Below, piece after piece: positions 5,239 to 64,000 of a stretch of DNA of 64,000 nucleotides (position 1 is the first letter of the stretch; each line of letters starts with the position of its first letter). Position numbers and translations under genes: made by a program. A model generated the notes under the pieces. The model was not told the DNA's origin and made no database searches. It saw only the letters and a list, made by a program, of their open reading frames with translations. The stretch comes from Heterodontus francisci (Eukaryota): the NCBI RefSeq assembly GCF_036365525.1, contig NC_090399.1:11593558-11657557 (forward strand), read 5' to 3'.

Positions 5239-5249
5239 ATTCCAGCGAG

Positions 5250-11635: not shown

Positions 11636-11639
11636 GTCC

Positions 11640-14300: not shown

Positions 14301-14463
14301 CGTTCTACAGACTTGATATTTCCCTTGCTACCCTTTTCTGAATCCTCCCGCCCTCCCCCCCTCCACCCTGCCATGCCCCCACCTGGAATTATTTTCCATG
14401 AAAAGCTCTAAACTCAAACCAATGTGCAGAAATCTGAAACAATCATTTCATGCTGTTAAAAAA

Positions 14464-14544
14464 TTTATTAAATCCGGACCATCTGCTCAGCAGTAAATCA
14501 TATGATAAATAAATAAATACATCAATTAATAAATATATTTAAAT
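14464..14544 (-). promoter_or_regulatory. AU-rich element and polyadenylation signal, TNF copy 1
   Basis: Six AUUUA pentamers on minus (three overlapping at 14506-14518), then AATAAA at 14469-14464, about 1.5 kb after the stop codon. Confidence 0.75.
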
Positions 14545-15991
14545 AATAACTTAGATCAATCTGGAACGACCGAAACTTGACAATATTTATGCCACTGAAT
14601 GACATCTTTAAAATAGATGTTACATTTTATACAAAACACAGATTGTGGTCACTGCACCACAATTAATATCCAACAGTCAAACATTTGAGATAGAAAATCT
14701 CCCGGTGTATGGAACCAATCAGATCTTTTGCTGGGATCACTGCCTGAATAATGGCCAATGGTGACTGCAAGGCATGATGGGAATAAGACTTCTCCATGGC
14801 AGCCAACCAGGAAACAATCCCAACAATGAACCTCAGATAAGAGCAGCATACATTCGACTCAAATAAAGCAGAATTAAACCAATAATAGTTCCTTCAAATT
14901 ATTCACAGTCATGCATTTTTGGGTGGTTTTGACAGTGCTCGTAGAATATACTTTCCCTTTTTAATTGGTTAAGTGTCAATCAATCACTTTTCAGAAAGTT
15001 AACATCCTGTGAAAAGTTGACCAATCACATTGTAGAAGGGGAAAGCCAGTTGGCTGCTGGGAGATTGGTTGGCCTTCATCAGCCAACAGAAATCTCAGAG
15101 GCTTTGCATGAGCATCGCCACTGAAGATCCAAGGAGATATGAGAGATATATTATAACACAAATAGATGACAAGGCATGGGCCATACTCTTCAAGGACCAA
15201 TAACAGGTCACACAGGCTAACCAGTCTGAATATCAGACCTGATAACCCACTTGTAGCTCTTGGGATTGTCTAATTACCCTCTCCCTGAGGAGTACCAGTT
15301 TAAATAACATGAACAACATTAAATGTCAATTAAGTACGAAATAAATTAAAGGACCAGTTGCTGATAGAGTTAAATTAAATGAGAAAATTAGCTTATTTAG
15401 AGCACAGTTATCGAAAACTGTCTCTTTGCACATTTACACAATTCATCTCATCAAACATGACGAATCGTGCACAGCAGTGAATCACCTAGACCTGCTCCCA
15501 GTGTTAAAGGTATTTGGGAGAACAGAAACATCATAGGGACAGATGTAGGTCATTCAGCCCCTCCAGCCGATTCAGACTGACATGTCCAGTCTATCTGGCA
15601 GTTTAACAGTGGCTCGTGAATCCTGAGAGAGATGCATAATTCTTCAGACTTCACCAATTGCTCTCAATACAGGATTAAAGGCACAGAGAGTGAACGAGGA
15701 GAGGCACAGACTCCCTCCGATCACTAACACTCTGGACTGTGCAATCAATCTGGAGTGGCAGAGCTGAAAGTACAGTGTGATAACCCACCACACTACCCAA
15801 TTCTAAAACACCAACACATTTGATAGTTTCTGTCTCTGCAAGTGTTTAAATAAAATGAAGGAGAAATGAGTCTCTTTGTCCAATTAGTGCAGGATAGGAC
15901 AATGTGTCCTGAACAGTTTCCATTGTATTTCAATCTGAAATTCTCAATCAGTCATCATTACTGGCCAAACGCTAGAAGTGACTCAGGTTCC

Positions 15992-18003
15992 TCACAAAGC
16001 AAATATTCCAAAGAAGCTCTTTCCTTGGGCAGTGTCTACATATCTCACCAACTCCTCACTAACCCTGGAGTAGATCTGATCTCCCTCCTCAAACTCAAAT
16101 ATGGCTCCCTGATAGGAGGTCTTGTACCAGGGATCTCCGTGTTGGCGGGAATGACAGTCTGACTTGGTGGCTCTCAGTAGCAAGACTTCCTCTGGATAAC
16201 TGGGTGAGAGCTTGGCGAGCTCGTGGCTCAGATACACAGTCTTATCCTGACAGCCCCTGCTGTAGAAGACCACCTGGGTGTAGACAAAGTACCGACCAGG
16301 GGTCTTGATGACGAGACTGTTGTCTGTGAACTCCACGCCCTCGGCAAAGGTGGAGTCCGCCTCATTCTGCCAAATCACATTCTTTCCTTTGCTAGTTGGT
16401 GAAGCTGAAGAGAGAAAGAGAGAGGGAGAAACTTAAGGACGGAATAAAGACAAAGCAACAATTTGCATTTATATAGTGCCTTTCACATCCTCAGGACATC
16501 CCAAAGCACTTTACAGCCAATGAAGTACTTTTTGAAGTGTAGTCACTGTTGTAATGCAGGAAATGGGGCAACCAATTTCTCCCCTGCACTTCCCCAATAG
16601 GATTGTAGCTGTTTCTGTTCACAGATCTTAAATATTAAACAGTACAAGCTCGATACATGGGACACTGAAGGAAGCATTGCTAAATGTCCAAAAAACTGAG
16701 TGGAATTAACTGGCCTTGGCCAGACAATGAATAGATGGGATACATAAAGCAACACAACACAAAAGGGGGCCATTCAGCCCATTGTGACTGTGCTGTATCT
16801 TTGGGTGAACTATCCAATTAATCCTAATGCCCAATTCTTTCCCCAGCACCCTGTAATTTTCTGCTGTACTACAGTGGGAGGGCCTCACTTCAGGATACGG
16901 GGTTATTAATAAGGTTAAGAATGTTCTGGTACCTGTCAGGTGAGCTGCGATTCTCCCCCTCGGGTCATTTCCCACCTGTTTCATGAGATGAGGGAGACCT
17001 GGAAAATGAAAAGGCAGATTCTCAGTTACTATTGTAACACACTCAGACCCAAAACTAACTGACAGAGAGAGTGAGAGATAGTGAGAGTGAGACAGAGTGA
17101 GAGAGAATGATGGAAAGGAAGAAATGGAGACCGAGAGATAGTGAGAGAAAATGATAGAGTGTGAGACTGATACAGGCAGAAACATTTTCAGAGTGAGAGA
17201 TTCTGAAAGAGATTGATATATAGGTGTGCAGACAGTTTGATACAAAGAAAGATACGGAGCCATATTGATAGAGAATTCGATTGAGGGAACACTCACCACT
17301 GTTACTCGGGACTGTTGTCAGCGGAGAATGAATCTGCTCAGACTGTAATCTTACTTCCTGTAGAAATTAAACAAAGAAAGAGGTTAAGATGTGAAATTCA
17401 CCCTGAATAATTCAACAGGAACATCTGTACAAAGGTTCAGTCCAGTTTGTTTGCGTTGCACAGAGAGACTGGGTGTGGAGGGGAAGATTCAGACTCTGAT
17501 TCTCATCCTGCAGATTGACAACAGATAGTTTATCAGAAAACAAGTCTTGGCTAAAGCTGAATAATGTACAGGATTGGTTATTAAATGGCTGCATGTTTTC
17601 AATCCAGGCCGTACTGAGGTGTTCAGAGAGAACAGTAAAACCCAACAGCCGCATTAACTGGGTGAACACAGTTTACTGTTTCACTGCAAGGAGCAGTGAG
17701 GACAGACACTGAAATCACTTCACAGCTTTACACCACACTGAAAGCAGCCTCTCGGAGGAATGCAAGGAACAAAGGAAAGGCAACAAGACGGAACTCGATC
17801 ACTGTTTTTCAAATAAAATCACACACCTGGTTTGAAGATAAAACTCCAAGCTGACAGAGTAACAGGTAGGAAGACACAGCCAGCAAACCCAGCACAGCCA
17901 CTGCACAGAGAGACTGCCAGAAACAGCTTCTCTTCGGCTCTGACTGCCTGAGTGTAACCATTCCTCCAGTCTCAAGGTCCAGCAACTTGTTCTCACAACT
18001 CAT
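15992..18003 (-). CDS. TNF: TNF-alpha-like cytokine, copy 1; exons 18003-17827, 17357-17297, 16998-16933, 16404-15992; 238 aa
   Basis: Manual splice: 177+61+66+413=717 nt, all introns GT-AG, phases 0/1/1 as in vertebrate TNF. Exon 1 encodes a type II TM anchor (KRSCFWQSLCAVAVLGLLAVSSYLLLC). Exon 3 ends in IAAHLT. Exon 4 encodes the TNF homology domain (LVIKTPGRYFVYTQVVF, two Cys, WY..YQGAIF, FFGIFAL-stop). TNF versus lymphotoxin orthology needs a phylogeny. Confidence 0.9.
16455..16620 (-). mobile_element. Deu-domain SINE remnant in TNF intron 3, internally deleted (also 31586-31751)
   Basis: ttgcatttatatagtgcc L2-type tail plus ttttgaagtgtagtcactgttgtaatg, resembling my recollection of the AmnSINE1/SacSINE1 Deu domain. 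Confidence 0.65.
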
Positions 18004-18110
18004 GGTGTTAGATGTCAGTCGGAACTTTGTTAGTAGCAGCCTTGTGTCTGACCCAGCGCCTCTCACTCTCAGTTCTCTGAGTGCTTTGTGATTGCTGCAG
18101 CTTCACGGCA

Positions 18111-18199
18111 GCTCTTTATAAAGAGCAGAGTCACATCACTGGTAAGTGTGATGCAATGGAGTAGGAAATACCCAACCGAAAGCAGCAACGATTGGAAAA
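18111..18199 (-). promoter_or_regulatory. Proximal promoter of TNF copy 1
   Basis: TATAAA inside palindrome GCTCTTTATAAAGAGC (18111-18126), about 110 nt upstream of the ATG; TGATGCAAT C/EBP-ATF motif 18149-18157; kB-like GGGTATTTCC (minus, 18164-18173); NFAT core TGGAAAA 18193-18199. Confidence 0.7.
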
Positions 18200-18459
18200 C
18201 GGCAACTTCTCCCGAGGCCAATGTGAGAATGATGTGAGACTGGATCTGTTCAACTTTCACTGAACATAGAAATAATTCGGCAGTTTCACCAATGCTGGGG
18301 AAACTTTAACAAAACTAAAAGTGGGCACTGTACATTGTCCCATGTTCTAAATGTGCTAATGACTGTGTCATTAACAATGAGAGAGAAAATACAGAGAAAG
18401 ATAACGTTTTTACAAATGTACGGAGAGAGTGACTCGGGGATACTCTAATCGACATTAAA

Positions 18460-19285
18460 GAAATGGTAGACTTGTTAAATAAGGGAGGTAGTTTTTGGAT
18501 TAATGTAAGTAAAAAATAACGGACAAATTAATGAGACTGAAGATCGAGAAGTTTCCAGGACCTGATGGCTTTCACCACAGAAAAAGTCGATAGAAAGATA
18601 TGAAGAGAGAAAAAATAAATTACTGAGGATCTTACATTTATATAAGAAAGATGCAACCAATTCACACTCGGAAGATCCCACAAACAGCAATGATTTAAAT
18701 AACCAGACAATCTGTTTTGGTGATTTTGGTTGAGGGATGTACATTGGAAAGGATACAGGTTCACAAGGGATATATTGGCCTTGGAGGGTTGCAGCACAGA
18801 TAGACTAGAATTGCACCAGGACAATGAGGGTTAAATTACAAGGCGAGGTTGTATAAACTTGTCTTGTGTTCCCTTGAGTATATGAGATTGAGGGGTTAAG
18901 GTGGTTAAAATGTTAAAGGATTTGATCGAGTAGATGTGTAGAAATTATATACTGTGTTGGATGATCCAAGGATAAGTGAACATAATCTTAATGTTCGAGC
19001 AAGACCATGTTGAGCGAATTTCAGGAAGTGCTTTTTCACACAAAAGTTTGTAGAAATCTTGGACTCTCTCTCGCCAAATGATAGCGAATGTTGTGTCATA
19101 ATTGGAGTGTTCAAGACTGAGATGGACAGATGTTTGTTCATTCAGAATATCAAGGGATATGGAGTAAAGGCTGGTGGATCGAGGTGAGATACAGATCTGC
19201 CATGACTTAAATGAATGTTGGAACAGGCTGGAGGGTGGAACAGGCTTGAGGGGCTGAATGGCCTCACGCTGTTCATTTGTTCCTC
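18460..19285 (+). mobile_element. CR1 fragments plus Deu-SINE fragment (about 18648-18745) upstream of the promoter; repeated at about 33575-34400 and 52255-53085
   Basis: CR1 C-terminal similarity (ALRGLNYKARLYKL..SLEY.RLRG); aagatcccacaaacagcaatg...accagacaatctg Deu-like motif. Confidence 0.6.
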
Positions 19286-19789
19286 TGCTCCAGATGACTT
19301 TGACCAGGCAGTGTTACTCTACAGCTAACCTGTGTTACACTTGATGTGGAATAGTTATAAGCTGGCAAGTGTCAGGAGGACTTTATCTGCATTTAACACA
19401 CCGAGTACTTTCCTGGGATTTGGAAAGAGTTTCCAATCCAACGATGGCCTGATTCATGTCAATAAATGTATATTTCCATTAACCATCACTCCCTTCCCCA
19501 ACATCAATGTTCTTTAATCTACCTTCTAGAAATAGGGAACTACATTATTGTCAAATCCCCTTTGTCTTTTTACATGGTATACAATTCTTTCCCAGAAAGG
19601 GAAGGTGTTGTTCTGAAGCCGAACACATTCGTCATGTTAATCTTACAGAGCCAATATTTCCACTTTGTGGGGGAATCCAGAAGAAGGGAACATCATTTGA
19701 GGTTAAAGCCAGGAGTGTAATTGGGAAGCAGTTCTTTACACAAAATGTAGTTTATATATTTATATAGCTGGAGAAGCAGTTATAGTTCA

Positions 19790-20065
19790 ATGTCGAGGTT
19801 TACAATCCATTAAACTTCTTTAGCTGATACAGTGTGAATGGTTGTGATGCCATCAGGAATGGATCTCACAGGGCAAGAGTTCAAGATGTGGGCCAATGAC
19901 TGACCTGGAGGGTCACAGTCACAATTTGAGCTGGTCCTTGGGATCCACTCATGAAGCAAGGAGCCAAATCTTCCCTGGTCCATCCTCAAGTGGTTGATGA
20001 TTGTCCAAATATTCCATGGGAGGTTGAAACCTGGGACTTCACCACTCAGTTTAGTTATCAGGCTG
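19790..20065 (-). mobile_element. 3' end of an Ingi/Vingi-like LINE (longer copies at about 34900-35300 and 53595-53990)
   Basis: WRIINHLR...RCGSLLHKW...NCDC...QTITHILNSCP...WIVNLDIEL zinc-knuckle C-terminus; clade call from recall. Confidence 0.5.
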
Positions 20066-20309
20066 CGTTGTTTTAAGGTCCTGTATCAATGCGACTGTGT
20101 CGTGGAAATCTGGAACTCTCTTCCTCAAAAGGCTGAGGATGTTGTGTCAATAGAAACATTCAAAAGTGTGGTTGATCGAATTTTCAGGGTTTATCAAGGG
20201 ATATAGAGTAAATATGGGTCAATGGTGTAAAACAGATCAGCCATGATCGAATTGAAAGGCTGCATGGCCTTTTCCTGTTCCTGTGTGATGCATGGTAAAC
20301 TCCTCATTT

Positions 20310-21320
20310 TTCAAGTATGTTCCAACTGTCAATGATTTCATTGTCTTCTGTGGGTCCTCTCATTAGTGAACAGTCTGATGTGACATTGGTATGGACGCCC
20401 AGAGAACTGGCAGTTCATAGTGTCATTGTTGGACTTGAGGGAACGTCTGCAGCTGCACCACCTCTGACCTTCCTCTGGGCATGTCGGATGATCCGAGTTT
20501 GGCCTAGATGGTCCCTGAAATACGCTGAACCAGATTTCAGTGCTTGCCCATGTGATCGGTCAGCTGCAGTGCTTTCCCAAGTGTGGTGGATTGCAATGCA
20601 GAATTTTGTGAGCCTTTGTAAGGATGTTCTTATATCATTTATAATGACAACCTTGATGATGTTTGCCCTGAGACAGCTCCGAGAGAAGATCTGCTTGGGG
20701 ATTCTGGAATCATCCATGTGGGAGACATGGCCTTGCCATCTGAGTTGAATATTCTAGAGGGTGGTCTCCATGCTGTTGAGCCAAGCACGATGAAGGACCT
20801 TGTTGTTTGTGATTTCATTCTGGTGTCAAATTCTCACGATGGTTTTAGGTGTAAGCATTCCAGAGCTTTGATGTGGCTCCTATAGCAGACCCAGGATTCT
20901 GTTCACTACAGCAGAGTGGTGAGGACAATGGCCTTGTAGAGATTGATTTCAGTCTTCAGCTTAATGCCTTGTTGCTGCCAAACATGATCATGGAGTTGGC
21001 CCGAGGCAGAACCTGCTTTCTGGATGTGTGCACCAATATCGTCATCACTAGTGACATCCCTAGAGAGCACACCACCAAGGTATGAGATTTTTTCTCCAAC
21101 CGAGACTTGTGCCATCAATGGTTATCTCTGCTGCTTCATAGTGTGTGCCAGTTGCTGGCTGAAACATAACCTCATTCTTGGAGACACTGTTTTGAAGACC
21201 AAAGTTTTTGGCAGCACTTGAGAATTTGTTTGCCATGGTCTGGATGTCTTCCTTGTTGTGGGCAGCTAGGGAACAGTCACCTGCATACTGAAACTCTCGG
21301 ATTTCTGCCTCTGTGACTTT
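20310..21320 (-). mobile_element. RTE-clade LINE fragment, unit 1
   Basis: QYAGD (degenerate YADD), YLGGVLS, RIQKA, LYKAIVLTTLLY, MDDSRIPKQIF, WE..AADRS. Confidence 0.75.
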
Positions 21321-22384
21321 AGTGGAAGCAGTTAAAATCAGGAATGCTCAAGACGACAGAATTAGAGGAGGACAGAGATCTCGATGGTGGTCGGGCTGGA
21401 GGAGATTACAGAGTTTGGGAGGGAAAAGGCCATGGAGGGATTTGAAAACGAGGATGAGAATTTTAAAACGAGGCATTACTTACTTATACCACAGCCAATG
21501 TATGTTGGCGAGCACCTGTGGATGAGCCTGTCACTCCAGAATTGGCCTTTATCGCCACTCCAGGCGCGGCTTCACAAACCACTGACCACCTCCAGGCGCG
21601 TATCCATTGTCTCTCGAGATAAGGAGGCCCAAAAGAACATGCATGATGGTGCGAATTAGCAGATGAGAAGCAGAGTTTTGAATGATGTCAGGTTTTCGGA
21701 GGGCAGAATTGTGGGAGACCAGCTAGGAGAGCTTTGGAATAGTCAAGTCTATAGATAGCAAAGACCTGAATGAGGATTTCAGCAGCAGATGAGCTGAGGA
21801 AAGGGCAGAGTCAGGAGTTGTTACGGAGGTGGAAATAGGCGGGCAAGTTGTTGGCACAGATATGAGGTCAGGAGATCATCTTGGGGACAGAAGACAAGAG
21901 CTTCAGTTTTCTCAATATTTAATTGGAGGAAATTTCTGCTCATTCAGTCCTGGAAGTTGCACCAGCAGTCTGACAATTTTGAACTGAACAATTTTGAGAG
22001 AACTGTTAATAATATTGGCTAACATGGGAGTCAGGAGGGGAAGCTGGGTCGTCGGCAATGTAGTGGGAATAGGTCTGAGAGAGCAGGACTTGGATCTTAT
22101 GGACAAGATAATCTCAGAGTGTTTCTTTCAGTGATGGAGACAGAAGAAGCAGGGTTGGGACGGGAAAGAGGGATAAATGTGGAGAGCGGTAGAAGGAAGT
22201 GATCAGAGATGACTTTATCTGTGATAAATGGAACTGCAGTGAAATGCGAAGCTAGATTATGTGCTGAAGTCCTTGACCTTTGACCCAGAAACATAAGTGT
22301 GGCAGAGCTGACACTTAAAAGGGGTGTAGACACCCTTTATGGGTGAATCCTTGATGGTTTGACAGCGTCATTAGAGTGGATGCC

Positions 22385-22760
22385 TGAAGGTTAGATTCCA
22401 CCTTTAAATGGGGTCTCTGATGGTTAAACACTCTCTTTAGATTAGCTTTCTGATGGTTAGACTCCCTCTTTAGATGGGGGTCTCAGATGGTTAACACTCT
22501 GTTTAGATGGGTATCTCTGATGTTTAGCCACCCTCTTTAGTTGTAGCCTCTGACGGTTAGTTCCCCCTTTAGATGGGGGTCTCTGATAGTTAGACTCCCT
22601 CTTTTGATGGGAGTCTCTGATGGTTCGGCCCCCTCTTCTGATTGGGGTCTCTGACGGTTAGACCCCTCTTCTGATGGTGATCTCTGATGGTTAGCCTCCC
22701 TCTTTAGATGGTGGTCTCTGATGGTTAGAATGCCTCTTTAAATGGGGTTTCTGCTGGTTG
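22385..22760. repeat. About 34-bp minisatellite (GATGGTTAGACTCCCTCTTTAGATGGGGGTCTCT)n; paralogues at 38325-38764 plus 40334-40580, and 56725-57170
   Basis: Visible tandem periodicity; copy number differs between units. Confidence 0.9.
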
Positions 22761-23112
22761 AACTCTCTCAAGCTTTGTTGAGCACATCCTGTCCAACTAA
22801 CCCTCCTGCTCCATAGACCCCTTCCCACTAAACTGCTGAGCCCCCTATTCCACACTGGCCCTCAAATGCTCACTGGCATTGTAAATGTTTCTCTCTGGCT
22901 GAGTGGTGAATATGGAAATCCCATCCTGAGGAAATGCAGAGGGCATGTACTGAAGAGTACGGAATAAGATGCTGAGAACACTCAGGAGCAGACACACATC
23001 ACTCAGCCTTCTTGGGTAAATCTGTCCAGGAGAAGGCGAATGTTTATTTCAAACACAGTCTGGATGGGACCAAGAGACTTGATAGGAAACCACGGTAGGG
23101 AATCCATGTCTG

Positions 23113-23147
23113 ATCATCATCATCATCATCATCATCATCCCATCATC
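23113..23147. repeat. (CAT)n microsatellite; longer at 40895-40950, shorter at 57520-57541
   Basis: Directly visible. Confidence 0.9.
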
Positions 23148-23299
23148 GACCGAGAGGCTTTTTCTTAATTTAAAACTTTTCCATTAGCTGGGCTGTAAAT
23201 TGTCTCATCTTTCGAACTTTCTATTTTCTGATAAGTACTATCAGCCTTTCAAAATGGTCACCCTCTGACCGACTCCCAATCATGTTATCCAATCTACAA

Positions 23300-23530
23300 T
23301 TTCCAATCACCCAATTCTCTCTCTCATATTCTCAATCTCTTGATCCTTTCACAGATTCCTAATCGCCTGATGCTCTCTGTCAGATTCCCAGTCTCCTGAT
23401 CCTCTCTCTCATATTCCCAGTCTCCTGATCCTCTCTCTCAGATTCCCAGTCTCATGATCCTCTCTCTCAGATTCCCAGTCTCCTGATCCTCTCTCTCAGA
23501 TTCCCAATCTACTGATCCCCTTTCTCAGAG
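23300..23530. repeat. 29-bp minisatellite (GATCCTCTCTCTCAGATTCCCAGTCTCAT)n; paralogues at about 41105-41330 and 57700-57925
   Basis: Period 29 (gat at 23398 and 23427). Confidence 0.9.
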
Positions 23531-23769
23531 TGCTTGTCACAGATTGGTCGTAAACTGAGTGCATCATAAACAGAATGTAAAAGTTGGGAATTCAACGAGA
23601 ATGGGAATTTGGTGTATAATGGGAAGGTGATGCTGCTTTCTGCCTCCAATACTTTGAATGGTTCATGTAACTGGTAAATATTTAGTTTCATTTCCTTGTG
23701 CCTTAAACTAGTTCAAGTAATTAGTTACAGCACTAAAATCTATGAGCTGAATGAAGTAAATAAATAAAC

Positions 23770-26700
23770 AAGGCTATATTGGGATGGCAGTGCAGGTAGT
23801 GTGGCTGCAATTGCAGCACATGGTAGTTATGGGGAGAGCATTGTGATCCTGGACAACCACATCTGCGTGAAGTGTCTGAATCTTGAGGAAATTCCCCTCA
23901 GAGATATTGACATTGTGGGGCATCAAGCAGGGAGAGAGTTACCTGGACTCTTTTATTCAGGAGGCAGTAACACCGCCTACGTTACATGCTGGTACAGGTC
24001 TGGTTAGTGGTCAGGAACAGAAGGGCGTGACTGTGAGTCAGGCAGGTAATGGGAGCCCAAGTGTACTCAGCCTTTGTCCTTGTCCAACATGTATGAGGTT
24101 CTTGCTGCCTTTGTGGATGAGGACAAAGTTTGCAGGATGGATGTGCAAACTGACCACAGCACCATGATACAGGGGTTGATTCAATTAGAGGGAGTAAAAA
24201 GGAATGTGTTAGCTAACGGAATAGTGAGGGAAATAGATACTGTTCGCTGCAGCTGTGACTGGGAGTTCCAAAGATTGTATTTCCTGCCTGGTTCCAGGGT
24301 TAAAGATCTTGCAGCTGGAGCAGAATGGAGTGGGAGAGGGAGGGGAAGGATCACGTTTGTTATGGTCCATGTAGGAACCAAAGACATAGGTAGAATTAAG
24401 GCACAGATTATGAAATGAAACCTCAAGGTTATGTCATGATCCTGTCTTTTTTTCCTCTCTGGGAAATATGTGGTGTCTCTTTCAGACAATAAATGATCAG
24501 TCCTGCTTTAAGAACCACCAGGCCTCAGGAGTTACCAATCAGGTACATTCTCGTTGCCTTGGATACAGCCACAAGGACTGAGAGCATGGAGAGATTCATT
24601 TGTTACAATTTAATTTTGAACTGGCTTATAGTGCAAACAGTCTGTTCCAACAGGAGACACAGACAGACAGCTGTGTGTTAGCACCTGAAAGAAGTGTTCT
24701 CAGTTCAATTAAAGTGAAGGAAGAAAATATAGTCTCTTTATTCTTTATTCTCTCTCAAAATTAAAACAAAGTCACGCCAAAACAGAGATCTCTGATAATT
24801 TAAACTGAAGGAAGGGAAGTGAGACTGTGACAATATTTTATCCCTCAAAATACTCTAAAGTCAGATTGATTCTATTGAAAGTGTTTGCAAGTTGTTAATC
24901 CTTGAAATCTATCACTGAAGAAGGAAAGCATCACTTACTGCTGGAATTAGACTACAGATTGTTCTGCTGTTGAAGAACGTTTTTTCCAATTGGACGGCTG
25001 TGAGGACTTCAAGCAACAGTGGACTGTAAATTTGCAAGGACTCTAATTTTTTTTTAATGTTGTTTATATCTTAGTAGTGTTTAAGATTTTAGTTTATCGA
25101 ATTAAAGAGTTAATTTGTTGATTTAAAGACACCTGGTTTGGTTAGCCTCATTTGGGGGTTAATAGATGGTATAATTAGTCTGGGTCTTTTTTTAATTTGA
25201 AATGTTGAATATGATATGTTAGGCAATCTGTGGAGGAACGAGATAGAATTAACAGTGCTTTTCTCCCACCGCTAACAGAATCGTATATTTTGATTGGGGG
25301 CTTTGACTGGAGCGGTCGGTCGTAACATATTAGTTGGGGGCTCACTCGAGATTTGAATCATATATTAATTGGGTTGCTGACTTTGAATCATATCTTGAAG
25401 TGGTCGGTCGTAACAGGTAATAATCTCTGTATTAATACCTAAGTCATGAGCCAATTCGAATAGGGTCAAACAGGTTAGAGGGTTGAATGCCTGTCTCGAC
25501 AAGGGATTTGATTTAAGGGGCATTAGTGCCAGTACAGGGGAAAGAGGAAGCAGTTCTGTTGGGACGGGCTCCCTTAAACCAGGCAGTATCCTGGCAAATC
25601 ATTTAAATAGGGCTGCAGCTAGGGCTTTAAACTGAAAATGCGGGGAAGGACCAAGTGAGGGGAAATTTATAAATCTAAAGAGAAAAGTCAAGGTGACAGA
25701 GCAGTGTGGTGCTTTGGGTAAAAGTAAGCAGAATGTGACAGGAAGGGACAAAAGTACGAGCGAAAATCATGCATCAATGTGTAAGGTCAAATTAGGGAAA
25801 AATGGTGCAAATGAAAATCAAACGCACTTTATCCAAATGCACAAAATACTTTTAACATGAATTAATGGCGCAAATAGACATCATTGGGTTTGATGTTATA
25901 CCCTTTACAGAGATGTGTTGTATGGTGACCAAGGAAGGGAACTAAATCTTGCACGGTACCTGATCTTTCAAAAAGGTAAACAAAATAGAAAAGCAAAATA
26001 GTGCAGAGTAGCCCTGTTAATAAAGCATGGTCTAAGGACAATAGTGAGGAAGAATCTTGGCTTAGAATAGGAGAATGCAGTATCGGAATTGGTGAAGATA
26101 ATAAATGACAAGCATCTGAAAATTAAGATGGGAATAATTTTTAGGTCCTCCAACAGTAGATATACTGTTGGGCACAATATTAATCAAGAAATATGAGGAC
26201 TTCGTAACAAAGGCAATGCAATAATCATGGGGCATGTAAATCTTCATATTGACTGCACAATCAAATTGACAAAAATAGTTTGAAGGAAGATTACAGAGAA
26301 TGCTTTCAAGACCAAAGCAGGAAAGAGGTTATTTTAGATATTGTTTTGAAGAATGAGAATGGTTAATTAATAATCTCATAGGAGGGGATAATGTGGGGAA
26401 GAGTGATAATAACATGATAGAACTTCACCTTGATTTTGTGAGTGACGTACATAAGACTGAAATTAAGATATTGAACATATTTAAAGCCAATTAAATAAGA
26501 ACGAGGGGTGTTGGCTAATGTATATTAGGAAACTGGAATGAAATGTGTAATGGTAGATGAACAATCGTGAATATTTCAAGAAATATTTCATAAGTCTCAA
26601 CACTTCTACATTCCATTCAGAAATAAAACTTCCATGGGAATATTGATCAACTAACGGCTAAATAACGAGGTTAAGGATAATATTAGATTAAAGAAGAGGC

Positions 26701-29325: not shown

Positions 29326-29527
29326 TTCCCAATCTCCTGATCCTCTCTCAGATTCCCAATCCACCAGTCCTACCTCTGATTCCCAAAGTCCTGATCCTGT
29401 GTCTGATTTGCAGGCTGTAACCTGACAAAAAATTCCTCCCTCAACTGGAATCCTTTCCCTTGAAAAGCTCTAAATGCAAACCAATGTGCAGTAACGAGAA
29501 AGAAGCAATTCATGCTTTTAAAATAAT

Positions 29528-29613
29528 TTTATTAATTCTTGTCCATCATCTCAGCAGTAAATAATATAAATAATAAACAATATAAATACATAAATTCATA
29601 AATATATTTAAAT
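29528..29613 (-). promoter_or_regulatory. AU-rich element and polyadenylation signal, TNF copy 2
   Basis: Six dispersed AUUUA at 29558-29613; AATAAA at 29533-29528. Confidence 0.75.
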
Positions 29614-29815
29614 AATAACTTAAATCAATCTGGAACATCCAAATCTTGACAACAGAAAAACATCTTTATAAAAGATGATACATTTTTATGTAAAACACAG
29701 ATTTTGGTCAATGGACCAAATTAATAACCAACAGTCGAACTATGGAGACTGCAAGGCATGATGGGAATGTGACTTCACCATAGCAACCAATCAGGAAACA
29801 TTTGGACCAATGAAC

Positions 29816-29961
29816 ATTGAATTAAAAGTTACCTGGACGTGCACCTGAAGTGCTGGAACATGCAAAGCTACGGACTAGGTGATGGAAAGTGGGGTCAGTT
29901 TGGGCGGCTAGTTTTTTCAGCCTCCTTCAGTGCCGTAGATTGTCTATTGTTCTCTGGTTCT
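29816..29961 (+). mobile_element. CR1-type 3' tail inserted in the 3' UTR of copy 2 (also 48366-48512 in copy 3)
   Basis: 7-bp TSD AATGAAC (29809-29815 and 29962-29968); single empty site in copy 1 at 14825-14831. Confidence 0.8.
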
Positions 29962-51813: not shown

Positions 51814-51920
51814 GGTGTTAGATGTCAGTCGGAGCTTTGTTAGTAGCAGCCTTGTGTCTGACCCAGCGACTCTCACTCTCAGTTCTCTGAGTGCTTTGTG
51901 ATTGCTGCAGCTTCACGGCA

Positions 51921-52009
51921 GCTCTTTATAAAGAGCAGAGTCACATCACTGGTAAGTGTGATGCAATGGAGTAGGAAATACCCAACCGAAAGCAGCAACG
52001 ATTGGAAAA
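51921..52009 (-). promoter_or_regulatory. Proximal promoter of TNF copy 3
   Basis: Same motifs as copy 1 (palindromic TATA 51921-51936). Confidence 0.7.
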
Positions 52010-54264: not shown

Positions 54265-55285
54265 CGAGTATGTTCCAGCTGTCAATGGTTTCATTGTCTT
54301 CTGTGGGTCCTCGCAATAGTGAACAGCCTGAAATGAGATTGGTCTGGATGCCCAGAGAACTGGCAGTTCATAGTGTCATTGTTGGACTTGAGGGAACGTC
54401 TGCAGCTGCAGGACCTCTGACCTTCCTCTGGGCATGTCGGATGATCCAAGTTTAGCATAGATAGTCCGTGAAATACGCTGAACCAGATTTCAGTGCTTGC
54501 CCATGTGGATCGGTCGGCTGCAGTGTTTTCCTAAGTGTGGTGGATTGCAATGCAGAATTTTGTGAGCCTTTTTTAAGGATGTTCTTATATCATTTGTAAT
54601 GACAATCTTGATTGTGTTTGCCCTGAGATAGTTCCCAGAGAAGATCTGCTTGGGGATTCTGGAATCATCCATGTGGGAGACATGGCCTTGCCATCTGAGT
54701 TGAATATTCTAGAGGGTGGTCTCCATGATGTTGAGCCAAGCCCGATGGAGGACCTCGTTGTTTGTGATTTTGTTCTGGTATCAAATTCTCATGATGTTTC
54801 AGGTGTCTCTGGTGTAAGCATTCCAGAGCTTTGATGTGGCTTCTATAGCAGACGCAGGATTCTGTTCAATACAGCAGGGTGGTGAGGACAATGGCCTTGT
54901 AGAGTTTGATTTGAGTCTTCAGCTTAATGCCTTGTTGCTGCCAGACATGATCATGGAGTCGGCCCGAGGCAGAACTTGCCTTCTGGATGCGTGCACCGAT
55001 ATCTTCATCACTCGTGACATCCCTAGAGAGCACACGACCAAGGTATGAGAATTTTTCTCCAACCGAGACTTGTGCCATCAATGGTTATCTCTGCTGCTTC
55101 ATAGTGTGTGCCAGTTGCTGGCTGAAACATAACCTCATTCTTGGAGACACTGTTTTGAAGACCAAAGTTTTTGGCAGCACTTGAGAATTTGTTTGCCATG
55201 GTCTGGATGTCTTCCTTGTTGTGGGCAGCTAGGGAACAGTCACCTGCATACTGAAACTCTCGGATTTCTGCCTCTGTGACTTTAG
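54265..55285 (-). mobile_element. RTE-clade LINE fragment, unit 3
   Basis: Paralogous to 20310-21320. Confidence 0.75.
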
Positions 55286-58200
55286 TGGAAGCAGTTAAAA
55301 TCAGGAATGCTCAAGACGACAGAATTAGAGGAGGACAGAGATCTTGATGGTGGTCGGGCTGGAGGAGATTACAGTGTTTGGGAGGGAAAAGGCCATGGAG
55401 GGATTTGAAAACAAGGATGAGAATTTTATAACAAGGCATTGATTATATCACAGCCAATGTATGTTGGCGAGCACAGGCATGATGGTCCGAATTAGCAGAT
55501 GGGAAGCAGAGTTTTGGATGATGTCAGGTTTTCGGAGGGCAGAATTGTGGGAGACTAGCTAGGAGAGATTTGGAATAGTCAAGTCTATAGGTAACAAAGG
55601 CCTGAATGAGGATTTCAGCAGCAGATGAGCTGAGGAAAGGGCAGAGTCAGGAGTTGTTACGGAGGTGGAAATAGGCGGACAAGTTGTTGGCACAGATATG
55701 AGGTCAGGAGATCATCTTGGGGATAGAAGGCAAGAGCTTCAGTTTTCTCAATACTTAATTAGAGGAAATTTCTGCTCACTCAGTCCTGGAAGTTGCACTA
55801 GCGGTCTGACAATTTTAAGACAGTGGAGGGGTCAAGAGAGATGGTGATGAGGTAGAGCTGGGTATCATGAGAGCACATGTGGAAACTGACAATGTATTTT
55901 CGGATGATGTCACCATGGAGCAGCATGTTAATGAGAAATAGGAGGGGACTAAGGATTGATCCATGGGGGTCACTGGAGGTAACAGTGCAGGAGTGGGAAG
56001 AAAAGCCATTGCAACTGATTCACGCAGGCAAATGCAGTCCTAACCAGCTGGAGAATGGTGAAGAGGCGCGGGAGGATTTATGACTTCGACAAGAGCCATT
56101 TCAGTCCTCTGGCAGTCACTGAAAGCTGTTTGGAGGGATACAAACATGGAGATCTGGGAAAGATAGTCGTGGATTTTGGATACGACAATATGTCATAGAG
56201 TTTGGAGAGGAAAGGGAGGTTCAACTGTGATAGTATTTTGTAAGTTCGGAACGCTCAAGGGTTGTTTTTTTGAGGAGAGAGGTGCTGGCGACAGATTTGA
56301 AGGTGAGGGGGTGAGTACTGGAGGAGAGAGAACTGTTAATAATATCAGCTAACATGGGAGTCAGGAGGGGAAGTTGGGTTGTCAGCAATGTAGTGGGAAT
56401 AGGTCTGAGAGAGAAGGTCTTGGATCTTATGGACAAGATAATCTCAGAGTGTTTCTTCCAGTGGTGGACACAGAAGAAGCAGGGTTGGGAAGGGAAAGAG
56501 GGATAAGTGTGGAGAGCGGTAGATCGAAGTGATCAGAGATGACTTTATCTGTGATTAATGGAACTGCAGTGAAATGTGTGGCTAGATTATGTGCTCAAGT
56601 CCTTGACCTCTTCACCTTTGACCCAGAAACGTAAGTGTGGCAGAGCTGAGACTTAAAAGGGGTGTAGACACCCTTTATGAGTGAATCCTTGATGGTTTGA
56701 CAGCGTCATTAGAGTGGATGCCTGAAGCTTAGATTCCACCTTTAAATGGGGTCTCTGATGGTTAAACACTCTCTTTAGATTAGCTTTCTGATGGTTAGAC
56801 TCCCTCTTTAGATGGGGGTCTCTGATGGTTAACACTCTGTTTAGATGAGGGATCTCTGATGTTTAGCCACCCTCTTCAGTTGTAGTCTCTGATAGTTAGA
56901 CTCCCTCTTCTGATGGGGGTCTCTGATGGTTAGACTCCCTCTTTGGAAGTGTGTCTCTGATGGTTGTACCCCCTATTCTGATGGGGGTCTCTGACGGTTA
57001 GTTCCCCCTTTAGATGGGGGTCTCTGATAGTTAGACTCCGTCTTTTCATGGGAGTCACTGATGGTTAGGCCCCCTCTTCTGATTGGGGTCTCTGACCGTT
57101 AGACCCCCTCTTCTGATGGGGGTCTCTGATGGTTAGATTCCCTCTTTAAATGGGGTTTCTGCTGGTTGAACTCTCTCAAGCTTTTTTGAGCTCATCTTGT
57201 CCAACTAACCCTCCTGCTCCATAGACCCCTTCCCACTAAACTGCTGAGCCCCCTATTCCACACTGGCCCTCAAATGCTCACTGGCATTGTAAATGTTTCT
57301 CTCTGGCTGAGTGGTGAATATGGAAATCCCATCCTGAGGAAATGCAGAGGGCATGTACTGAAGAGTACGGAATAAGATGCTGAGAACACTCAGGAGCAGA
57401 CATACATCACTCAGCCTTCTTGGGTAAATCTGTCCAGGAGAAGGCGAATGTTTATTTCAACACAGTCTGGATGGGACCAAGAGACTTGATAGGAAACCAC
57501 GGTAGGGAATCCATGTCTGATCATCATCATCATCCCATCATCGACCGAGAGGCTTTTTCTTAATTTAAAACTTTTTTCCATTAGCTGGGCTGTAAATTGT
57601 CTCATCTTTCGAACTTTCTATTTTCTGATAAGTACTATCAGCCTTTCAAAATGGTCACCCTCTGACCGACTCCCAATCATGTTATCCAATCTACAATTTC
57701 CAATCACCCAATTCTCTCTCTCATATTCTCAATCTCTTGATCCTTTCACAGATTCCTAATCGCCTGATCCTCTCTCTCAGATTCCCAGTCTCATGATCCT
57801 CTCTCTCAGATTCCCAATCTACTGATCCTCTCTCTCAGATTCCCAGTCTCCTGATCCTCTCTCTCAGATTCCCAGTCTCATTATTCTCTCTCTCAGATTC
57901 CCAATCTACTGATCCCCTTTCTCAGAGTGCTTGTCACAGATTGGTCGTAAACTGAGTGCATCATAAACAGAATGTAAAAGTTGGGAATTCAACGAGAATG
58001 GGAATTTGGTGTATAATGGGAAGGTGATGCTGCTTTCTGCCTCCAATACTTTGAATGGTTCATGTAACTGGTAAATATTTAGTTTCATTTCCTTGTACCT
58101 TAAACTAGTTCAAGTAATTAGTTACAGCACTAAAATCTATGAGCTGAATGAAGTAAATAAATAAACAAGGCTATATTGGGATGGCAGTGCAGGTAGTGTG

Positions 58201-58825
58201 GCTGCAATTGCAGCACATGGTAGTTATAGGGAGAGCATTGTGATCCTGGACAACCACATCTGCGTGAAGTGTCTGAATCTTGAGGAAATTCCACTCAGAG
58301 ATATTGACATTGTGGGGCATCAAGCAGGGAGAGAGTTACCTGGACTCTTTTATTCAGGAGGCAGTAACACCGCCTACGTTACGTGCTGGTACAGGTCTGG
58401 TTAGTGGTCAGGAACAGGAGGGCGTGACTGTGAGTCAGGCAGGTAAGGGGAGCCCAAGTGTACTCAGCCTTTGTCCTTGTCCAACATGTATGAGGTTCTT
58501 GCTGCCTGTGTGGATGAGGACAAAGTTTGCAGGATGGATGTGCAAACTGACCACAGCACCATGATACAGCGGTTGATTCAATTGGAGGGAGTGGAAAGGA
58601 ATGTGTTAGGTAACGGAATAGTGAGGGAAATAGATACTGTTCACTGCAGCTGTGATTGGGAGTTCCAAAGATTGTGTTTCCTGCCTGGTTCCAGAGTTAA
58701 AGATCTTGCAGCTGGAGCAGAACGGAGTGGGAGAGGGAGGGGCAGGATCACGTTTGTGATGGTCCATGTAGGAACCAATGACATAGGTGGAATAAAGGCA
58801 CAAATTATGAAATGAAACCTTAAGG

Positions 58826-60881
58826 TTTTTCTCTCTGGGAAATATGTGGTGTGTCTTTAAGACAACAAATAATCAGTACTGCTTTAAGAACAAGCAGGCC
58901 TCAGGAGGTACCAAGAAGGTACATTCTCATTGCCTTGGATACAGCCACAAGGACTGAGCATCGAGAGATTCATTTCATAGAGTTATGCAGCACGGAAACA
59001 GGCCCTTCAGCCCATTGTGTCTGTGCCGGCCATCAAGCACCTCTCTATTCTAATCCCATTTTCCAGCATTTGGCCCACAGCCTTGTATGCTATGGCATTT
59101 CAAGTGCTCATCTGGATACTTCTTAAATGTTGTGAGGGTTCCCGCCTCTACCACCCCTTCAGGCAGTGCGTTCCAGATTACAACCACCTTCTGGATGAAA
59201 AGGTGTTTCCTCAAATCCCCTCTAAACCTCTTGCCCTTTACCTTAAATCTATGCCCCCTGGCGATTTATCCACTTTCAAGGATGTCAGACCCTCTAGTAC
59301 TTCCTCTCTCATTATGCTTATCATATCCAATATTTCACACTCTTCCTCTTTACCTAAAATGTCTGCTTCATCCCACACCACATATTTCCCAGAGAGAAAA
59401 AAAAACAGGATCATGACATAACCTTCAGGTTTCATTTCATAATTTCTGCCTTAATTCTACCTATGTCATTGGTTCCTACATGGACCATAACAAACTGTTC
59501 CTTCCCCTCCCTCTCCCACTCCGTTCTGCTCCAGCTGCAAGATCTTTAACCCTGGAACCAGGCAGGAAACACAATCTTTGGAACTCTCAATCACAACTGC
59601 TGCGAACAGTATCTATTTCCCTCATTCTTTGTGAAGGCAGAGGCAAAAAACTCACTAAGAACCCTGCCGACATCTTCTGCATCCACGCATAAGTTCCCTT
59701 GTACATCTCTGATAGGCCCTACCCTTTCCTTGGTTATCCTCTTGCTCTTAATGTACTGATAAAACATCTTTGGATTTTCCTTGATTTTACCTGCCAATAA
59801 TTTTTCATGTCCTCTCTTTGCTTTTCTAATTTCCTTTTTTACTTTACTCCTGCACTTTCTATACTCCTCTCGGCTTTCTAAAGTATGAAGATTTTTGTGA
59901 TTGTCAAAAGCTTTCTTTTTCTGCTTTACCTTACCCTATAAGCTTCTAGATAACCAGGGGGCTCTAGATTTGGCAGTGCCACCCTTTATCTTTGTGGGGA
60001 CATTCCTACACTGTGCCTGTAGTATCTCACTTTTGAATGCCTCCCATTGGTTTGCACATTTGTTACAATTTAATTTTGAACTGGCTTATAGTGCAAACAG
60101 TCTGTTCCAACAGGAGACACAGACAGACAGCTGTGTGTTCACACCTGAAAGAAGTGTTCTCAGTTCATTTAAAGTGAAGGAAGATAATTTAGTCTCTTTA
60201 TTCTTTATTCTCTCTCAAAATTATAAAAAATCACGGCAAAACAGAGATCTCTGATAATTTAAACTGAAGGAAGGGAAGTGAGACGGTGACAATATTTTAT
60301 CCCTCAAAAAACTCTAAAGTCAGATTGATTCTATTGAAAGTGTTTGCAAGTTGTTAATCGTTGAAATTCATTGCTGGAGAAGGAAAGCATCATTTTCTGC
60401 TGGAATTAGACGATGGATTGTTCTGCTGTTGAAGAACATTTTTTTCCTTTGGACGGCTGTGAGGACTTCAAGCAACAATGGACTGTAAATTTGCAAGGAC
60501 TCTAATTTTTTTTTAATTTTATATGTTGTTTATATCTTAGTAGTGTTGAAGAATTTAGTTTTTCTAATGAAAGAGTTAATTTGTTGATTTAAAGACACCT
60601 GGTTTGGTTAGCCTGATTCGGGGGTTAATAGATGGGATAATTTGTCTGGGTCTTTCTTTAATTTGGAAAGTTGAATATGATATGTTCGGCAATCTGTGGA
60701 GGAACGAGATAGAATTAACAGTGCTTTTCTCCCACCACAAACAGAATCGTATATTTTGATTGGGGGCTTTGACTGGAGTGGTCGGTCGTAACATATTAAT
60801 TGGGAGCTCACTCGAGATTTGAATCATATATTCATTGGGTTGCTGACTTTGAATTATATCTTGAAGTGGTCGGTCGTAACA
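58826..60881 (+). mobile_element. Collapsed LTR retroelement, unit 3 (5' terminus deleted; interrupted at 58976-60056)
   Basis: Colinear with the unit 1 LTR on both sides of the insertion. Confidence 0.7.
58976..60056 (-). mobile_element. Rearranged CR1 insertion, private to unit 3, with a captured inverted local fragment (59374-59624)
   Basis: TSD CATTT (58971-58975 and 60057-60061); CR1 pieces at 60056-59625, 59373-59262 and 59261-58976. Confidence 0.8.
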
Positions 60882-60913
60882 GGTAATAATCTCTGTATTA
60901 ATACCTAAGTCAT

Positions 60914-63900
60914 ACAAAGAACAAAGAAAATTACAGCACAGGAACAGGCCCTTCGGCCCTCCAAGCCTACGCCGATCCAAATCCTCTATCTAAACATGTC
61001 GCCTCTTTGCTTCCTGCCCATTCATGTATCTGTCTAGATACATCTTTAAAGACGCTATCGTGCCCGCGTCTACCACCTCCGCTGGCAACGCGTTCCAGGC
61101 ACCCACCACCCTCTGCGTAAAGAACTTTCCACGTATATCCCCCCTAAACTTTTCCCCTCTCACTTTGAACTTGTGACCCCCTAGTAATTGAATCCCCCAC
61201 TCTGGGAAAAAGCTTCTTGCTCTCCACCCTGTCTATACCTCTCATGATTTTGTACACCTCAATCAGGTCCCCCCTCAACCTCCGTCTTTCTAATGAAAAT
61301 AATCCTAATCTACTCAACCTCTCTTCATAGCTAGCGCCCTCCATACCAGGCAACATCCTGGTGAACCTCCTCTGCACCCTCTCCAAAGCATCTACATCCT
61401 TTTGGTAATGTGGCGACCAGAACTGCACGCAGTATTCCAAATGTGGCCGAACCAAAGTCTTATACAACTGTAACATGACCTGCCAACCCTTGTACTCAAT
61501 ACCCCGTCGGATGAAGGAAAGCATGCCGTATGCCTTCTTGACCACTCTATTGACCTGCGTTGCCACCTTCAGGGAACAATGGACCTGAACACCCAAATCT
61601 CTCTGCACATCACTTTTCCCCAGGACTTTTCCATTTACTGTATAGTTCACTCTTGAATTGGATCTTCTAAAATGCATCACCTCGCATTTGCCCAGATTGA
61701 ACTCCATCTGCCATTTCTCTGCCCAACTCTCCAATCTACCTATATTCTGCTGTATTCTCTGACAGTCCCCTTCACTATCTGCTATTCCACCAATCTTAGT
61801 GTTGTCGGCAAACTTGCTAATCAGACCACCGATACTTTCCTCCAAATCATTTATGTATATCACAAACAACAGTGGTCCCAGCACAGATCCCTGTGGAACA
61901 CCACTGGTCACACGTCTCCATTTTGAGAAACTCCCTTCCACTGCTACTCTCTGTCTCCTGTTGCCCAGCCAGTTCTTTATCTATCTAGCTAGTACACCCT
62001 GGACCCCATGCGACTTCACTTTCTCCATCAGCCTACCATGGGGAACCTTATCAAACGCCTTACTGAAGTCCATGTATATGACATCTACAGCCCTTCCCTC
62101 ATCAATCAACTTTGTCACTTCCTCAAAGAATTCTATTAAGTTGGTAAGACATGACCTTCCCTGCACAAAACCATGTTGCCTATCACTGATAAGCCCATTT
62201 TCTTCCAAATGGGAATAGATCCTTTCCCTCAGTATCTTCTCCAGCAGCTTTCCTACCACTGACGTCAGGCTCACCGGTCTATAATTACCTGGATTATCCC
62301 TGCTACCCTTCTTAAACAAGGGGACAACATTAGCAATTCTCCAGTCCTCCGGGACCTCTCCCGTGTTTAAGGATGCTGCAAAGATATCTGTTAAGGCCCC
62401 AGCTATTTCCTCTCTCGCTTCCCTCAGTAACCTGGGATAGATCCCATCCGGACCTGGGGACTTGTCCACCTTAATGCCTTTTAGAATACCCAACACTTCC
62501 TCCCTCCTTATGCCGACTTGACCTAGAGTAATCAAACATCTGTCCCTAACCTCAACATCCGTCATGTCCCTCTCCTCGGTGAATACCGATGCAAAGTACT
62601 CGTTTAGAATCTCACCCATTTTCTCTGACTCCACGCATAACTTTCCTCCTTTGTCCTTGAGTGGGCCAATCCTTTCTCTAATTACCCTCTTGCTCCTTAT
62701 ATATGAATAAAAGGCTTTGGGATTTTCCTTAGCCCTGTTTGCTAAAGATATTTCATGACCCCTTCTAGCCCTCTTAATTCCTCGTTTCAGATTGGTCCTA
62801 CATTCCCGATATTCTTTCAAAGCTTCGTCTTTCTTCAGCCTCCTAGACCTTATGTACGCTTCCTTTTTCCTCTTAGCTAGTCTCACAATTTCACCTGTCA
62901 TCCATGGTTCCCTAATCTTGCCATTTCTATCCCTCATTTTCACAGGAACATGTCTCTCCTGCACGCTAATCAACCTCTCTTTAAAAGCCTCCCACATATC
63001 AAATGTGGATTTATCTTCAAACAGCTGCTCCCAATCTACATTCCCCAGCTCCTGCCGAATTTTGGTATAGTTGGCCTTCCCCCAATTTAGCACTCTTCCT
63101 TTAGGACCACTCTCGTCTTTGTCCATGAGTATTCTAAAACTTACGGAATTGTGATCACTATTCCCAAAGTAGTCCCCTACTGAAACTTCAACCACCTGGC
63201 CGGGCTCATTCCCCAACACCAGGTCCAGTATGGCCCCTTCCCGAGTTGGACAATTTACATCCTGCTCTAGAAAACCCTCCTGGATGCTCCTTACAAATTC
63301 TGCTCCATCTAGACCTCTAACACTAAGTGAATCCCAGTCAATGTTGGGAAAATTAAAATCTCCTATCACCACCACCCTGTTGCTCCTACATCTTTCCATA
63401 ATCTGTTTACATATTTGTACCTCTATCTCACGCTCGCTGTTGGGAGGCCTGTAGTACAGCCCCAACATTGTTACCGCACCCTTCGTATTTCTGAGTTCTG
63501 CCCATATTGCCTCACTGCTCGAGTCCTCCATAGTGCCCTCCTTCAGCACAGCTGTGATATCCTCTTTGACCAGTAATGCAACTCCTCCACCCCTTTTACC
63601 TCCCTCTCTATCCCGCCTGAAGCATCGATATCCTGGGATATTTAGTTGCCAATCATGCCCTTCCCTCAACCAAGTCTCAGGAATAGCAATAACATCATAC
63701 TCCCAGGTACTAATCCAAGCCCTAAGTTCATCTGCCTTACCTACTACACTTCTTGCATTAAAACAAATGCACCTCAGGCCACCAGTCCCTTTGCGTTCAT
63801 CATCTGCTCAATGTCTACTCTTTCCCTTAGTCACGCTGACTTTATTATCTAGTTCCTTACAGGCTTTTGTTACTACCTCCTTACTGTCCACTGACCTCCT

Positions 63901-64000
63901 CATTTGGTTCCCATCCTCCTGCCACATTAGTTTAAACCCTCCCCAACAGCGTTAGCAAACGCATCCCCAAGGACATTGGTTCCAGTCCGGCACAGGTGTA
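60914..64000 (-). mobile_element. Young CR1 LINE: ORF1 end plus nearly intact ORF2 (APE and RT), extends past the window
   Basis: ORFs 63669-61981 and 61941-61144 are in the same frame, split by one TAG (W to stop); one late frameshift near 61180; tail (ttctttg)n; inserted after aagtcat, which is uninterrupted in units 1 and 2. Confidence 0.95.

Follow-up and report, generated by a model that had tools for sequence, protein, structure and literature searches.

A 64,000-nucleotide stretch of the horn shark (Heterodontus francisci) genome (contig NC_090399.1, forward-strand positions 11,593,558 to 11,657,557; hereafter the window, in whose own coordinates all positions are given) carries a tandem array of genes related to tumor necrosis factor (TNF) and lymphotoxin-alpha (LTA). 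Self-comparison of the window resolves three units arranged head-to-tail, each with one minus-strand gene, and the copy count of three refers to these 64 kb. A first-pass annotation made from the sequence alone had described three complete four-exon genes with promoter, AU-rich element, and polyadenylation signal, in periods of 15.1 and 18.55 kb, and this description was confirmed: all nine introns are bounded by GT and AG, every frame has one terminal stop and codes for 238 amino acids (aa), TATAAA, ATTTA clusters, and AATAAA are present in all three genes, and the starts of exon 4 (16404, 31535, and 50085) give periods of 15,131 and 18,550 bp. The coding exons measure 177, 61, 66, and 413 nt in every copy.

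14376..29437, minus strand: repeat unit 1, terminal, 15.1 kb
29438..47995, minus strand: repeat unit 2, 18.6 kb
47996..60913, minus strand: repeat unit 3, homologous to units 1 and 2 as far as a CR1 insertion
15992..18003, minus strand: gene copy 1 (c1), exons 18003-17827, 17357-17297, 16998-16933, and 16404-15992; 238 aa
31123..33134, minus strand: gene copy 2 (c2), exons 33134-32958, 32488-32428, 32129-32064, and 31535-31123; 238 aa
49673..51813, minus strand: gene copy 3 (c3), exons 51813-51637, 51159-51099, 50802-50737, and 50085-49673; 238 aa

Genes, proteins, and family identity

The self-comparison found no sequence colinear with the unit to the left of unit 1. Unit 3 is interrupted at 60,914 by a CR1 long interspersed nuclear element (LINE) that occupies the rest of the window to 64000; it had been described as cut by the window edge, whereas its homology already stops at 60,913 and it is the LINE that runs on to the edge. 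A tblastn search of the window with seven family proteins recovered only the 12 known exons, with no further TNF-family exons or remnants, and no other host gene was found in the window.

The three proteins are 96.6 to 97.9% identical in pairs. Their exon-4 frames all match the Pfam TNF domain (PF00229, E value about 1e-32), and the best match of a single copy among solved structures is TNF (1e-24), with LTA at 2e-18. Each copy has one hydrophobic segment near residues 27 to 55 (peak 2.44 at 32 to 50), with a polar tail of 27 residues N-terminal to it; this segment is predicted to be a type II membrane anchor, as in the TNF superfamily. Residues C153 and C185, matching the C69-C101 disulfide of TNF, are kept in all three copies and are invariant in 18 relatives, and the core aromatic positions align with those of TNF. 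The copies are probably all functional, and the earlier claim of a real duplication with intact copies stands.

Among the relatives, which were clustered at 90% identity, c3 equals the H. francisci protein P0023 (annotated as tumor necrosis factor-like) at 238 of 238 residues, in agreement with the shark origin proposed at first pass. Copies c1 and c2 differ from P0023 at 8 and 5 residues; no separate database entries were seen for them, and the P0023 cluster has five members. A tree of 61 rows (the three window proteins and 58 matches) over 242 columns separates three elasmobranch subfamilies, two of them divergent and with one row per species (support 100/100 each). The third is multi-copy, a clade of 39 rows (98/89) that includes both white shark LTA-c1 to c4 and the window copies, which cluster with H. 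francisci P0001, P0023, and P0035 (99/97). Members of this clade group mostly by lineage: Pristiophorus (4 rows), orectolobiforms (10), and batoids (10) form clades of their own at 100/100, while the lamniform group reaches only 92/87. On this placement, the window genes are assigned to the elasmobranch LTA-C subfamily, and they share its tandem multi-gene arrangement. The close paralogues P0001 and P0035 and the divergent ones P0015 and P0019 (tblastn) are not encoded in the window, which brings the H. francisci family to at least seven genes. Since P0001 and P0035 are annotated and cannot come from the window, the species has more than three genes, as the first-pass annotation had suspected.

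A profile built from 18 shark and ray family proteins scored LTA at 116.1 bits and TNF at 115.5 bits, and no bony-vertebrate TNF or LTA was found among the best 120 of the 226 matches. The earlier label of TNF-alpha-like genes is too specific, because the profile scores TNF and LTA alike and the white shark relatives are called LTA-C; the window genes are best classed as co-orthologues of both TNF and LTA. Lineage-specific clusters of LTA/TNF co-orthologues in sharks have reportedly been described by Redmond et al. (2022, J Immunol 209:1713). TNF and LTA have been placed in one orthogroup, TNFSF1/2, by Marin (2020; PMC7674686), with six genes in tandem in the whale shark and the same tandem in the white shark; a later count gives eight in the whale shark, with no mention of Heterodontus in its main text (Marin 2025; PMC11762692). 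On white shark chromosome 19, four LTA-C genes lie within 51 kb, followed by LTA-A and LTA-B, among genes of the major histocompatibility complex (MHC) class III (Verissimo et al. 2023; PMC10751288). The baseline first used, a single TNF beside LTA and LTB in mammals and dispersed extra copies in teleosts, was therefore the wrong comparison, because multi-gene shark tandems of the same family had been published (PMC7674686, PMC10751288). Several family copies are present in most well-sampled elasmobranchs. Two LTA-C clusters formed at 90% identity have several members, P0030 of Chiloscyllium punctatum with 13 and P0008 of Hemiscyllium ocellatum with 5, hinting at near-identical bamboo shark arrays, although the members could be isoforms or come from other species.

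Divergence, homogenization, and age of the units

Pairwise differences between the units amount to 4.6, 5.2, and 4.1% of 9,423 clean three-way columns, and at least six separate insertions distinguish them. The description of the copies as near-identical thus holds for the coding sequence (9 to 16 differences in 717 nt) and the promoter, but not for the units as a whole. The divergence is unevenly distributed among blocks (P < 0.0005, with and without the distal 3' untranslated region [UTR] of c1). In introns 2 and 3, c1 and c2 differ at 6 of 820 sites and either differs from c3 at 49, whereas in exon 4, which adjoins intron 3, c1 and c2 differ at 11 of 413. Since these introns are more alike than the next exon, a conversion tract or a late crossover is indicated, and a run test for the tract gave a P value of about 1e-4.

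16405..17296, minus strand: probable gene-conversion tract of c1 and c2, covering intron 3, exon 3, and intron 2; partner at about 31536-32427

The opposite is seen at the outer edge of the array, where the distal 3'UTR of c1 differs from both other copies at 94 of 692 sites (13.6%) and c2 and c3 differ from each other at 20. High local identity is therefore patchy, as expected of gene conversion. Two shorter runs (14435-14554 and 19651-19766) were also considered as conversion, but at about 120 bp they may reflect alignment or clustered mutations, and they are not relied on here. A literature search that took in few subscription papers found no prior description of conversion in this array; the supplements of the Marin papers, outside its scope, may list more shark copies.

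The insertions and other mobile elements that tell the units apart are the following (SINE, short interspersed nuclear element):

35406..35744, minus strand: SINE-like insertion private to unit 2
38764..40333, plus strand: 5'-truncated CR1-type LINE private to unit 2, within a 34-bp minisatellite
44112..44468, plus strand: second SINE-like insertion, in unit 2 and not in unit 1
46422..47114, plus strand: Penelope-like 3' fragment, in unit 2 and not in unit 1, with a 14-bp target-site duplication; 93.5% identical to 8110-8756
50259..50381, no strand assigned: 123-bp insertion that only c3 has in intron 3
58971..60056, no strand assigned: 1,086-bp composite insertion found only in unit 3, made of SINE and CR1 pieces and an inverted copy of neighboring unit sequence
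60914..64000, minus strand: CR1-type LINE ending unit 3, with an endonuclease-reverse transcriptase frame that stays open over two pieces (608 and 278 aa)

How old the array is can be judged against the epaulette shark, with a nucleotide diversity of 0.002 and a mutation rate of 7e-10 per generation (PMC10587355). The unit divergence is some 20 to 25 times that diversity, and at that rate 4.8% corresponds to about 3e7 generations (range, 1.7e7 to 1.7e8). Protein distances among the copies (0.022 to 0.039) are about a tenth of those to the nearest white shark gene (0.33 to 0.34). Heterodontus and the white shark separated at least 200 million years ago, which would give the copies a rough age of tens of millions of years.

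The first-pass annotation had read the array as a recent dosage amplification, from one TNF-alpha gene, that might still vary in copy number and exceed three units. The promoter and exon 1, which differ between copies at only 3 to 6 of 474 sites, the high protein identity, and the intactness of every copy fit that proposal, and the single Heterodontus clade points to a last round of duplication or homogenization specific to this lineage; in the promoter and exon 1, the effects of selection and conversion are inseparable. Against it stand units that are 4 to 5% diverged, the 13.6% in the c1 distal UTR, the six or more separate insertions, the presence of several copies in most well-sampled elasmobranchs, the equal profile scores of TNF and LTA, and the 3e7 generations estimated from the epaulette shark rate. 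We consider a recent amplification unlikely, and the word recent is contradicted by the unit divergence, the separate transposon gains, and the patchy identity. Still less probable, indeed very improbable, is an assembly artefact in which haplotypes or reads were put in tandem. The region is rich in repeats, but there are three distinct versions, 4 to 5% apart pairwise and with private transposons, against 0.2% diversity in the epaulette shark (PMC10587355), which excludes duplicated haplotypes, and comparable arrays exist in other sharks (PMC7674686, PMC10751288).

Several repeats accompany the array. A minisatellite of 33 to 34 bp occurs in every unit (22384-22759; 38320-38764 and 40333-40572; 56722-57167), and the copy in unit 2 is broken in two by the CR1 insertion. 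Related minisatellites of 27 to 29 bp are found within every unit and again a little beyond the 3' ends of genes 2 and 3 (23317-23529 and 29325-29408, with equivalents in units 2 and 3); the outer ones lie about 30 to 110 bp from a unit junction, with no counterpart at unit 1's left edge, and they are a possible recombination seed. Within the composite insertion of unit 3, positions 59374-59624 are an inverted 250-bp copy (94%) of 24225-24476 in unit 1 and 42029-42280 in unit 2, the copy in unit 3 itself being a more distant match by blastn (87%, gapped). The CR1 element at the end of unit 3 has a short tandem repeat as its tail and is fairly young, since its frame is open in two long pieces.

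No host gene was found at positions 1 to 14375, which hold only repeats and LINE fragments, the latter with CR1/L2-type reverse transcriptase and endonuclease matches at 1370-1918 and 8530-9315. A near-complete Penelope-like retroelement on the plus strand (5967-8764) has three overlapping frames (363, 286, and 248 aa), a weak Pfam GIY-YIG match (E value, 0.021), and what we take to be reverse transcriptase motifs; the insertion at 46422-47114 comes from the family that its 3' end represents. The SINE-like repeat is 300 to 350 bp long, with four copies 82 to 91% alike (2932-3241, 11951-12232, 35406-35744, and 44112-44468); it resembles the shark HE1 SINE and has no Rfam match, there being none at the gathering score across the 64 kb. 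A 22-bp minisatellite of about 23 copies (5247-5744) produces long minus-strand open frames that were rejected as genes, and a weak match of the P0035 N terminus to intergenic DNA, presumably an L2 retroelement fragment, was not used.

Differences among the copies

The promoters are nearly alike, any two copies differing at 4 of 326 sites of the promoter and 5'UTR, and a TATAAA starts 117 nt upstream of the ATG in each copy.

18004..18330, minus strand: c1 proximal promoter and 5'UTR; TATAAA at 18120-18115, kappaB-like site at 18173-18164
33135..33460, minus strand: c2 proximal promoter and 5'UTR; kappaB-like site at 33304-33295
51814..52140, minus strand: c3 proximal promoter and 5'UTR; kappaB-like site at 51983-51974

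The kappaB-like site carries one mismatch, and a scan for such sites was uninformative, since matches in the window are not enriched over chance (117 found versus 175 expected).

In the coding sequence, the ratio of nonsynonymous to synonymous differences per site (pN/pS) is 0.29, 0.29, and 0.37 for the three pairs, and the pooled changes (10 synonymous and 11 nonsynonymous) give an omega of about 0.42 (P = 0.04). With omega below 1, positive selection finds no support. Divergence of the copies in function, whether in receptor preference or in mRNA lifetime, appears doubtful, if less so than a recent amplification. It would draw on the 8 of 10 variable residues that are located within the TNF domain or at its start, on Asp184 of c1, found in none of 30 selected LTA-C relatives, on Ala175 of c2, where neither c1 nor c3 has Ala, and on the absence from c1 of two stem-loops found in c2 and c3 (see below). 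Position 175 aligns, as counted by hand, with Val91 of human TNF, which a computational study lists among the key contacts with TNFR1 (PMC11547827). However, omega is below 1, the promoters are nearly alike, and the variable sites vary across the family: the eight of the TNF domain show below-average conservation among the same 30 relatives (0.61 versus 0.79, P = 0.011), and Ala is the commonest residue at 175 (14 of the 30). The Ser-Tyr pair matching Ser86-Tyr87 of TNF is also unchanged in all three copies. The pattern fits mild constraint on all copies.

The 3'UTRs, whose extents were inferred as running from the stop to the AATAAA, present each a single AATAAA and 13, 13, and 14 ATTTA motifs, against shuffle means of 2.8 to 3.8 (none of 300 shuffles as high). 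They also contain stem-loops resembling constitutive decay elements (CDEs).

14464..15991, minus strand: c1 3'UTR (inferred); AATAAA at 14469, 13 ATTTA, CDE-like stem-loops at 15910-15896 and 15238-15224
29528..31122, minus strand: c2 3'UTR (inferred); AATAAA at 29533, 13 ATTTA, CDE-like stem-loops at 31041, 30366, 29676, and about 29642 (G-U pairs)
48086..49672, minus strand: c3 3'UTR (inferred); AATAAA at 48091, 14 ATTTA, CDE-like stem-loops at 49591, 48917, 48226, and about 48192 (G-U pairs)

CDEs are stemmed tri-loops recognized largely by shape (PMC9023295, PMC7367199), TNF is a target of Roquin, and both Roquin genes are present in sharks (PMC11172303, Table 1). All eight minus-strand hairpins in the window with at least six Watson-Crick pairs and a pyrimidine-purine-pyrimidine (YRY) tri-loop fall inside the three 3'UTRs (2 in c1, 3 in c2, and 3 in c3, corresponding to three independent sites), with a shuffle mean of 0.06 to 0.07 per UTR, and hairpins with non-YRY tri-loops show no enrichment. 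The six-pair threshold was picked after five-pair matches had been seen; over four thresholds the YRY excess holds for c2 and c3 (P of 0.03 or less), while that of c1 is lost once G-U pairs are allowed (P = 0.17 to 0.29). Only one of five folded segments is more stable than its own shuffles (z = -3.6). In c2 and c3, two YRY hairpins fold in tandem directly before the AU-rich cluster, and c1 lacks both. Since the strict consensus, used here as UUCYRYGAA (PMC11172303), is unmatched and the threshold was not fixed in advance, these stem-loops are only candidate Roquin-type CDEs. No prior description of CDEs in shark TNF/lymphotoxin (TNF/LT) mRNAs was found in a literature search that left most subscription papers outside its scope.

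Origin of the array and comparison with known systems

The explanation that we favor, with a probability of about 80%, is that these genes are the horn shark version of the elasmobranch LTA-C array, old, under weak purifying selection, and partly homogenized by unequal crossing-over and gene conversion. The divergence pattern suggests that, many millions of generations ago, tandem duplication of 15- to 18-kb units gave rise to the array, which turns over through unequal crossing-over and patchy conversion, so that the copies would look younger than the array and group by lineage, with the outer end of the terminal copy, c1, escaping homogenization. From the white shark, a location in MHC class III would be expected. 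By analogy with TNF biology, each gene may make an inducible, short-lived mRNA and a trimeric type II membrane ligand, perhaps shed, that would signal through TNFR1/2-like receptors; the three ligands would be largely interchangeable, their output probably limited post-transcriptionally by AU-rich elements and Roquin-type stem-loops and not by single copy number.

Several observations weigh against this explanation. The purifying selection is weakly significant and based on 21 changes, and Asp184 of c1 and Ala175 of c2 speak against full redundancy. With three sequences and no outgroup, conversion is not fully separable from successive unequal crossovers, nor is the lineage-wise pattern of the tree from independent duplications in each lineage, and clustering the relatives at 90% identity hides near-identical copies in other species. 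The two age estimates are rough and differ in scale, although neither is recent. No MHC class III neighbor lies within the window, the synteny being borrowed from the white shark, and the sense strand has no match to the strict CDE consensus (the opposite strand has 3, versus 5.2 expected).

A more speculative idea, which we consider rather unlikely, is that TNF/LT dose is set jointly by copy number and UTR type, in a concerted array with like promoters and ligands and differing 3'UTRs. The terminal copy would have lost the tandem pair of Roquin stem-loops, giving one ligand from mRNAs of different half-lives. If true, Roquin control of a TNF/LT gene would predate the TNF-LTA split and go back to the jawed-vertebrate ancestor.

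Shark TNF/LT tandems are already in print and at least one gene of the window (c3) was annotated; the array will not surprise a specialist, and its value is that of a clean case. Turnover of a shark cluster, in the form of conversion tracts, an edge that was not homogenized, and private transposons, can be seen here because the units are still alignable end to end. This bears on whether shark clusters that are specific to a lineage arose by independent expansion or represent a single old array in concerted evolution, and also on whether TNF-style post-transcriptional braking predates TNF itself. Through their copy-specific differences, the three genes can be tested directly and one by one for expression and mRNA decay.

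Within the LTA-C clade, white shark LTA-c3 and c4 are 78 to 80% identical to c3. The white shark LTA-C tandem is likewise multi-gene and of similar-order spacing (starts about 21, 19, and 8 kb apart). Its genes, however, are not all in the same orientation and have diverged further from one another, whereas the three of the horn shark are head-to-tail and 97 to 98% alike, in units of 15 to 18 kb that can still be aligned entire and with conversion tracts visible. Closer in sequence is the H. francisci paralogue P0001, 92% identical to c3 over aligned residues, which has 243 aa and differs in the exon-2 region. Mammalian TNF (TNFSF2), the nearest single-sequence match among solved structures, has four coding exons with the domain mostly in exon 4, a membrane anchor, a cysteine pair, and an AU-rich 3'UTR with CDE-like stem-loops, and the window genes have this plan in common with it. 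Mammalian LTA (TNFSF1) is secreted and is not known to have the disulfide of TNF, whereas the window proteins keep both cysteines and the 27-residue polar tail before the hydrophobic segment. The window genes differ from TNF in being multi-copy and in lacking the strict CDE sequence; in published analyses, where TNF and LTA count as equally related to them, TNF is not their one-to-one orthologue, and LTA, equal to it in family-profile score, belongs to the same orthogroup (PMC7674686).

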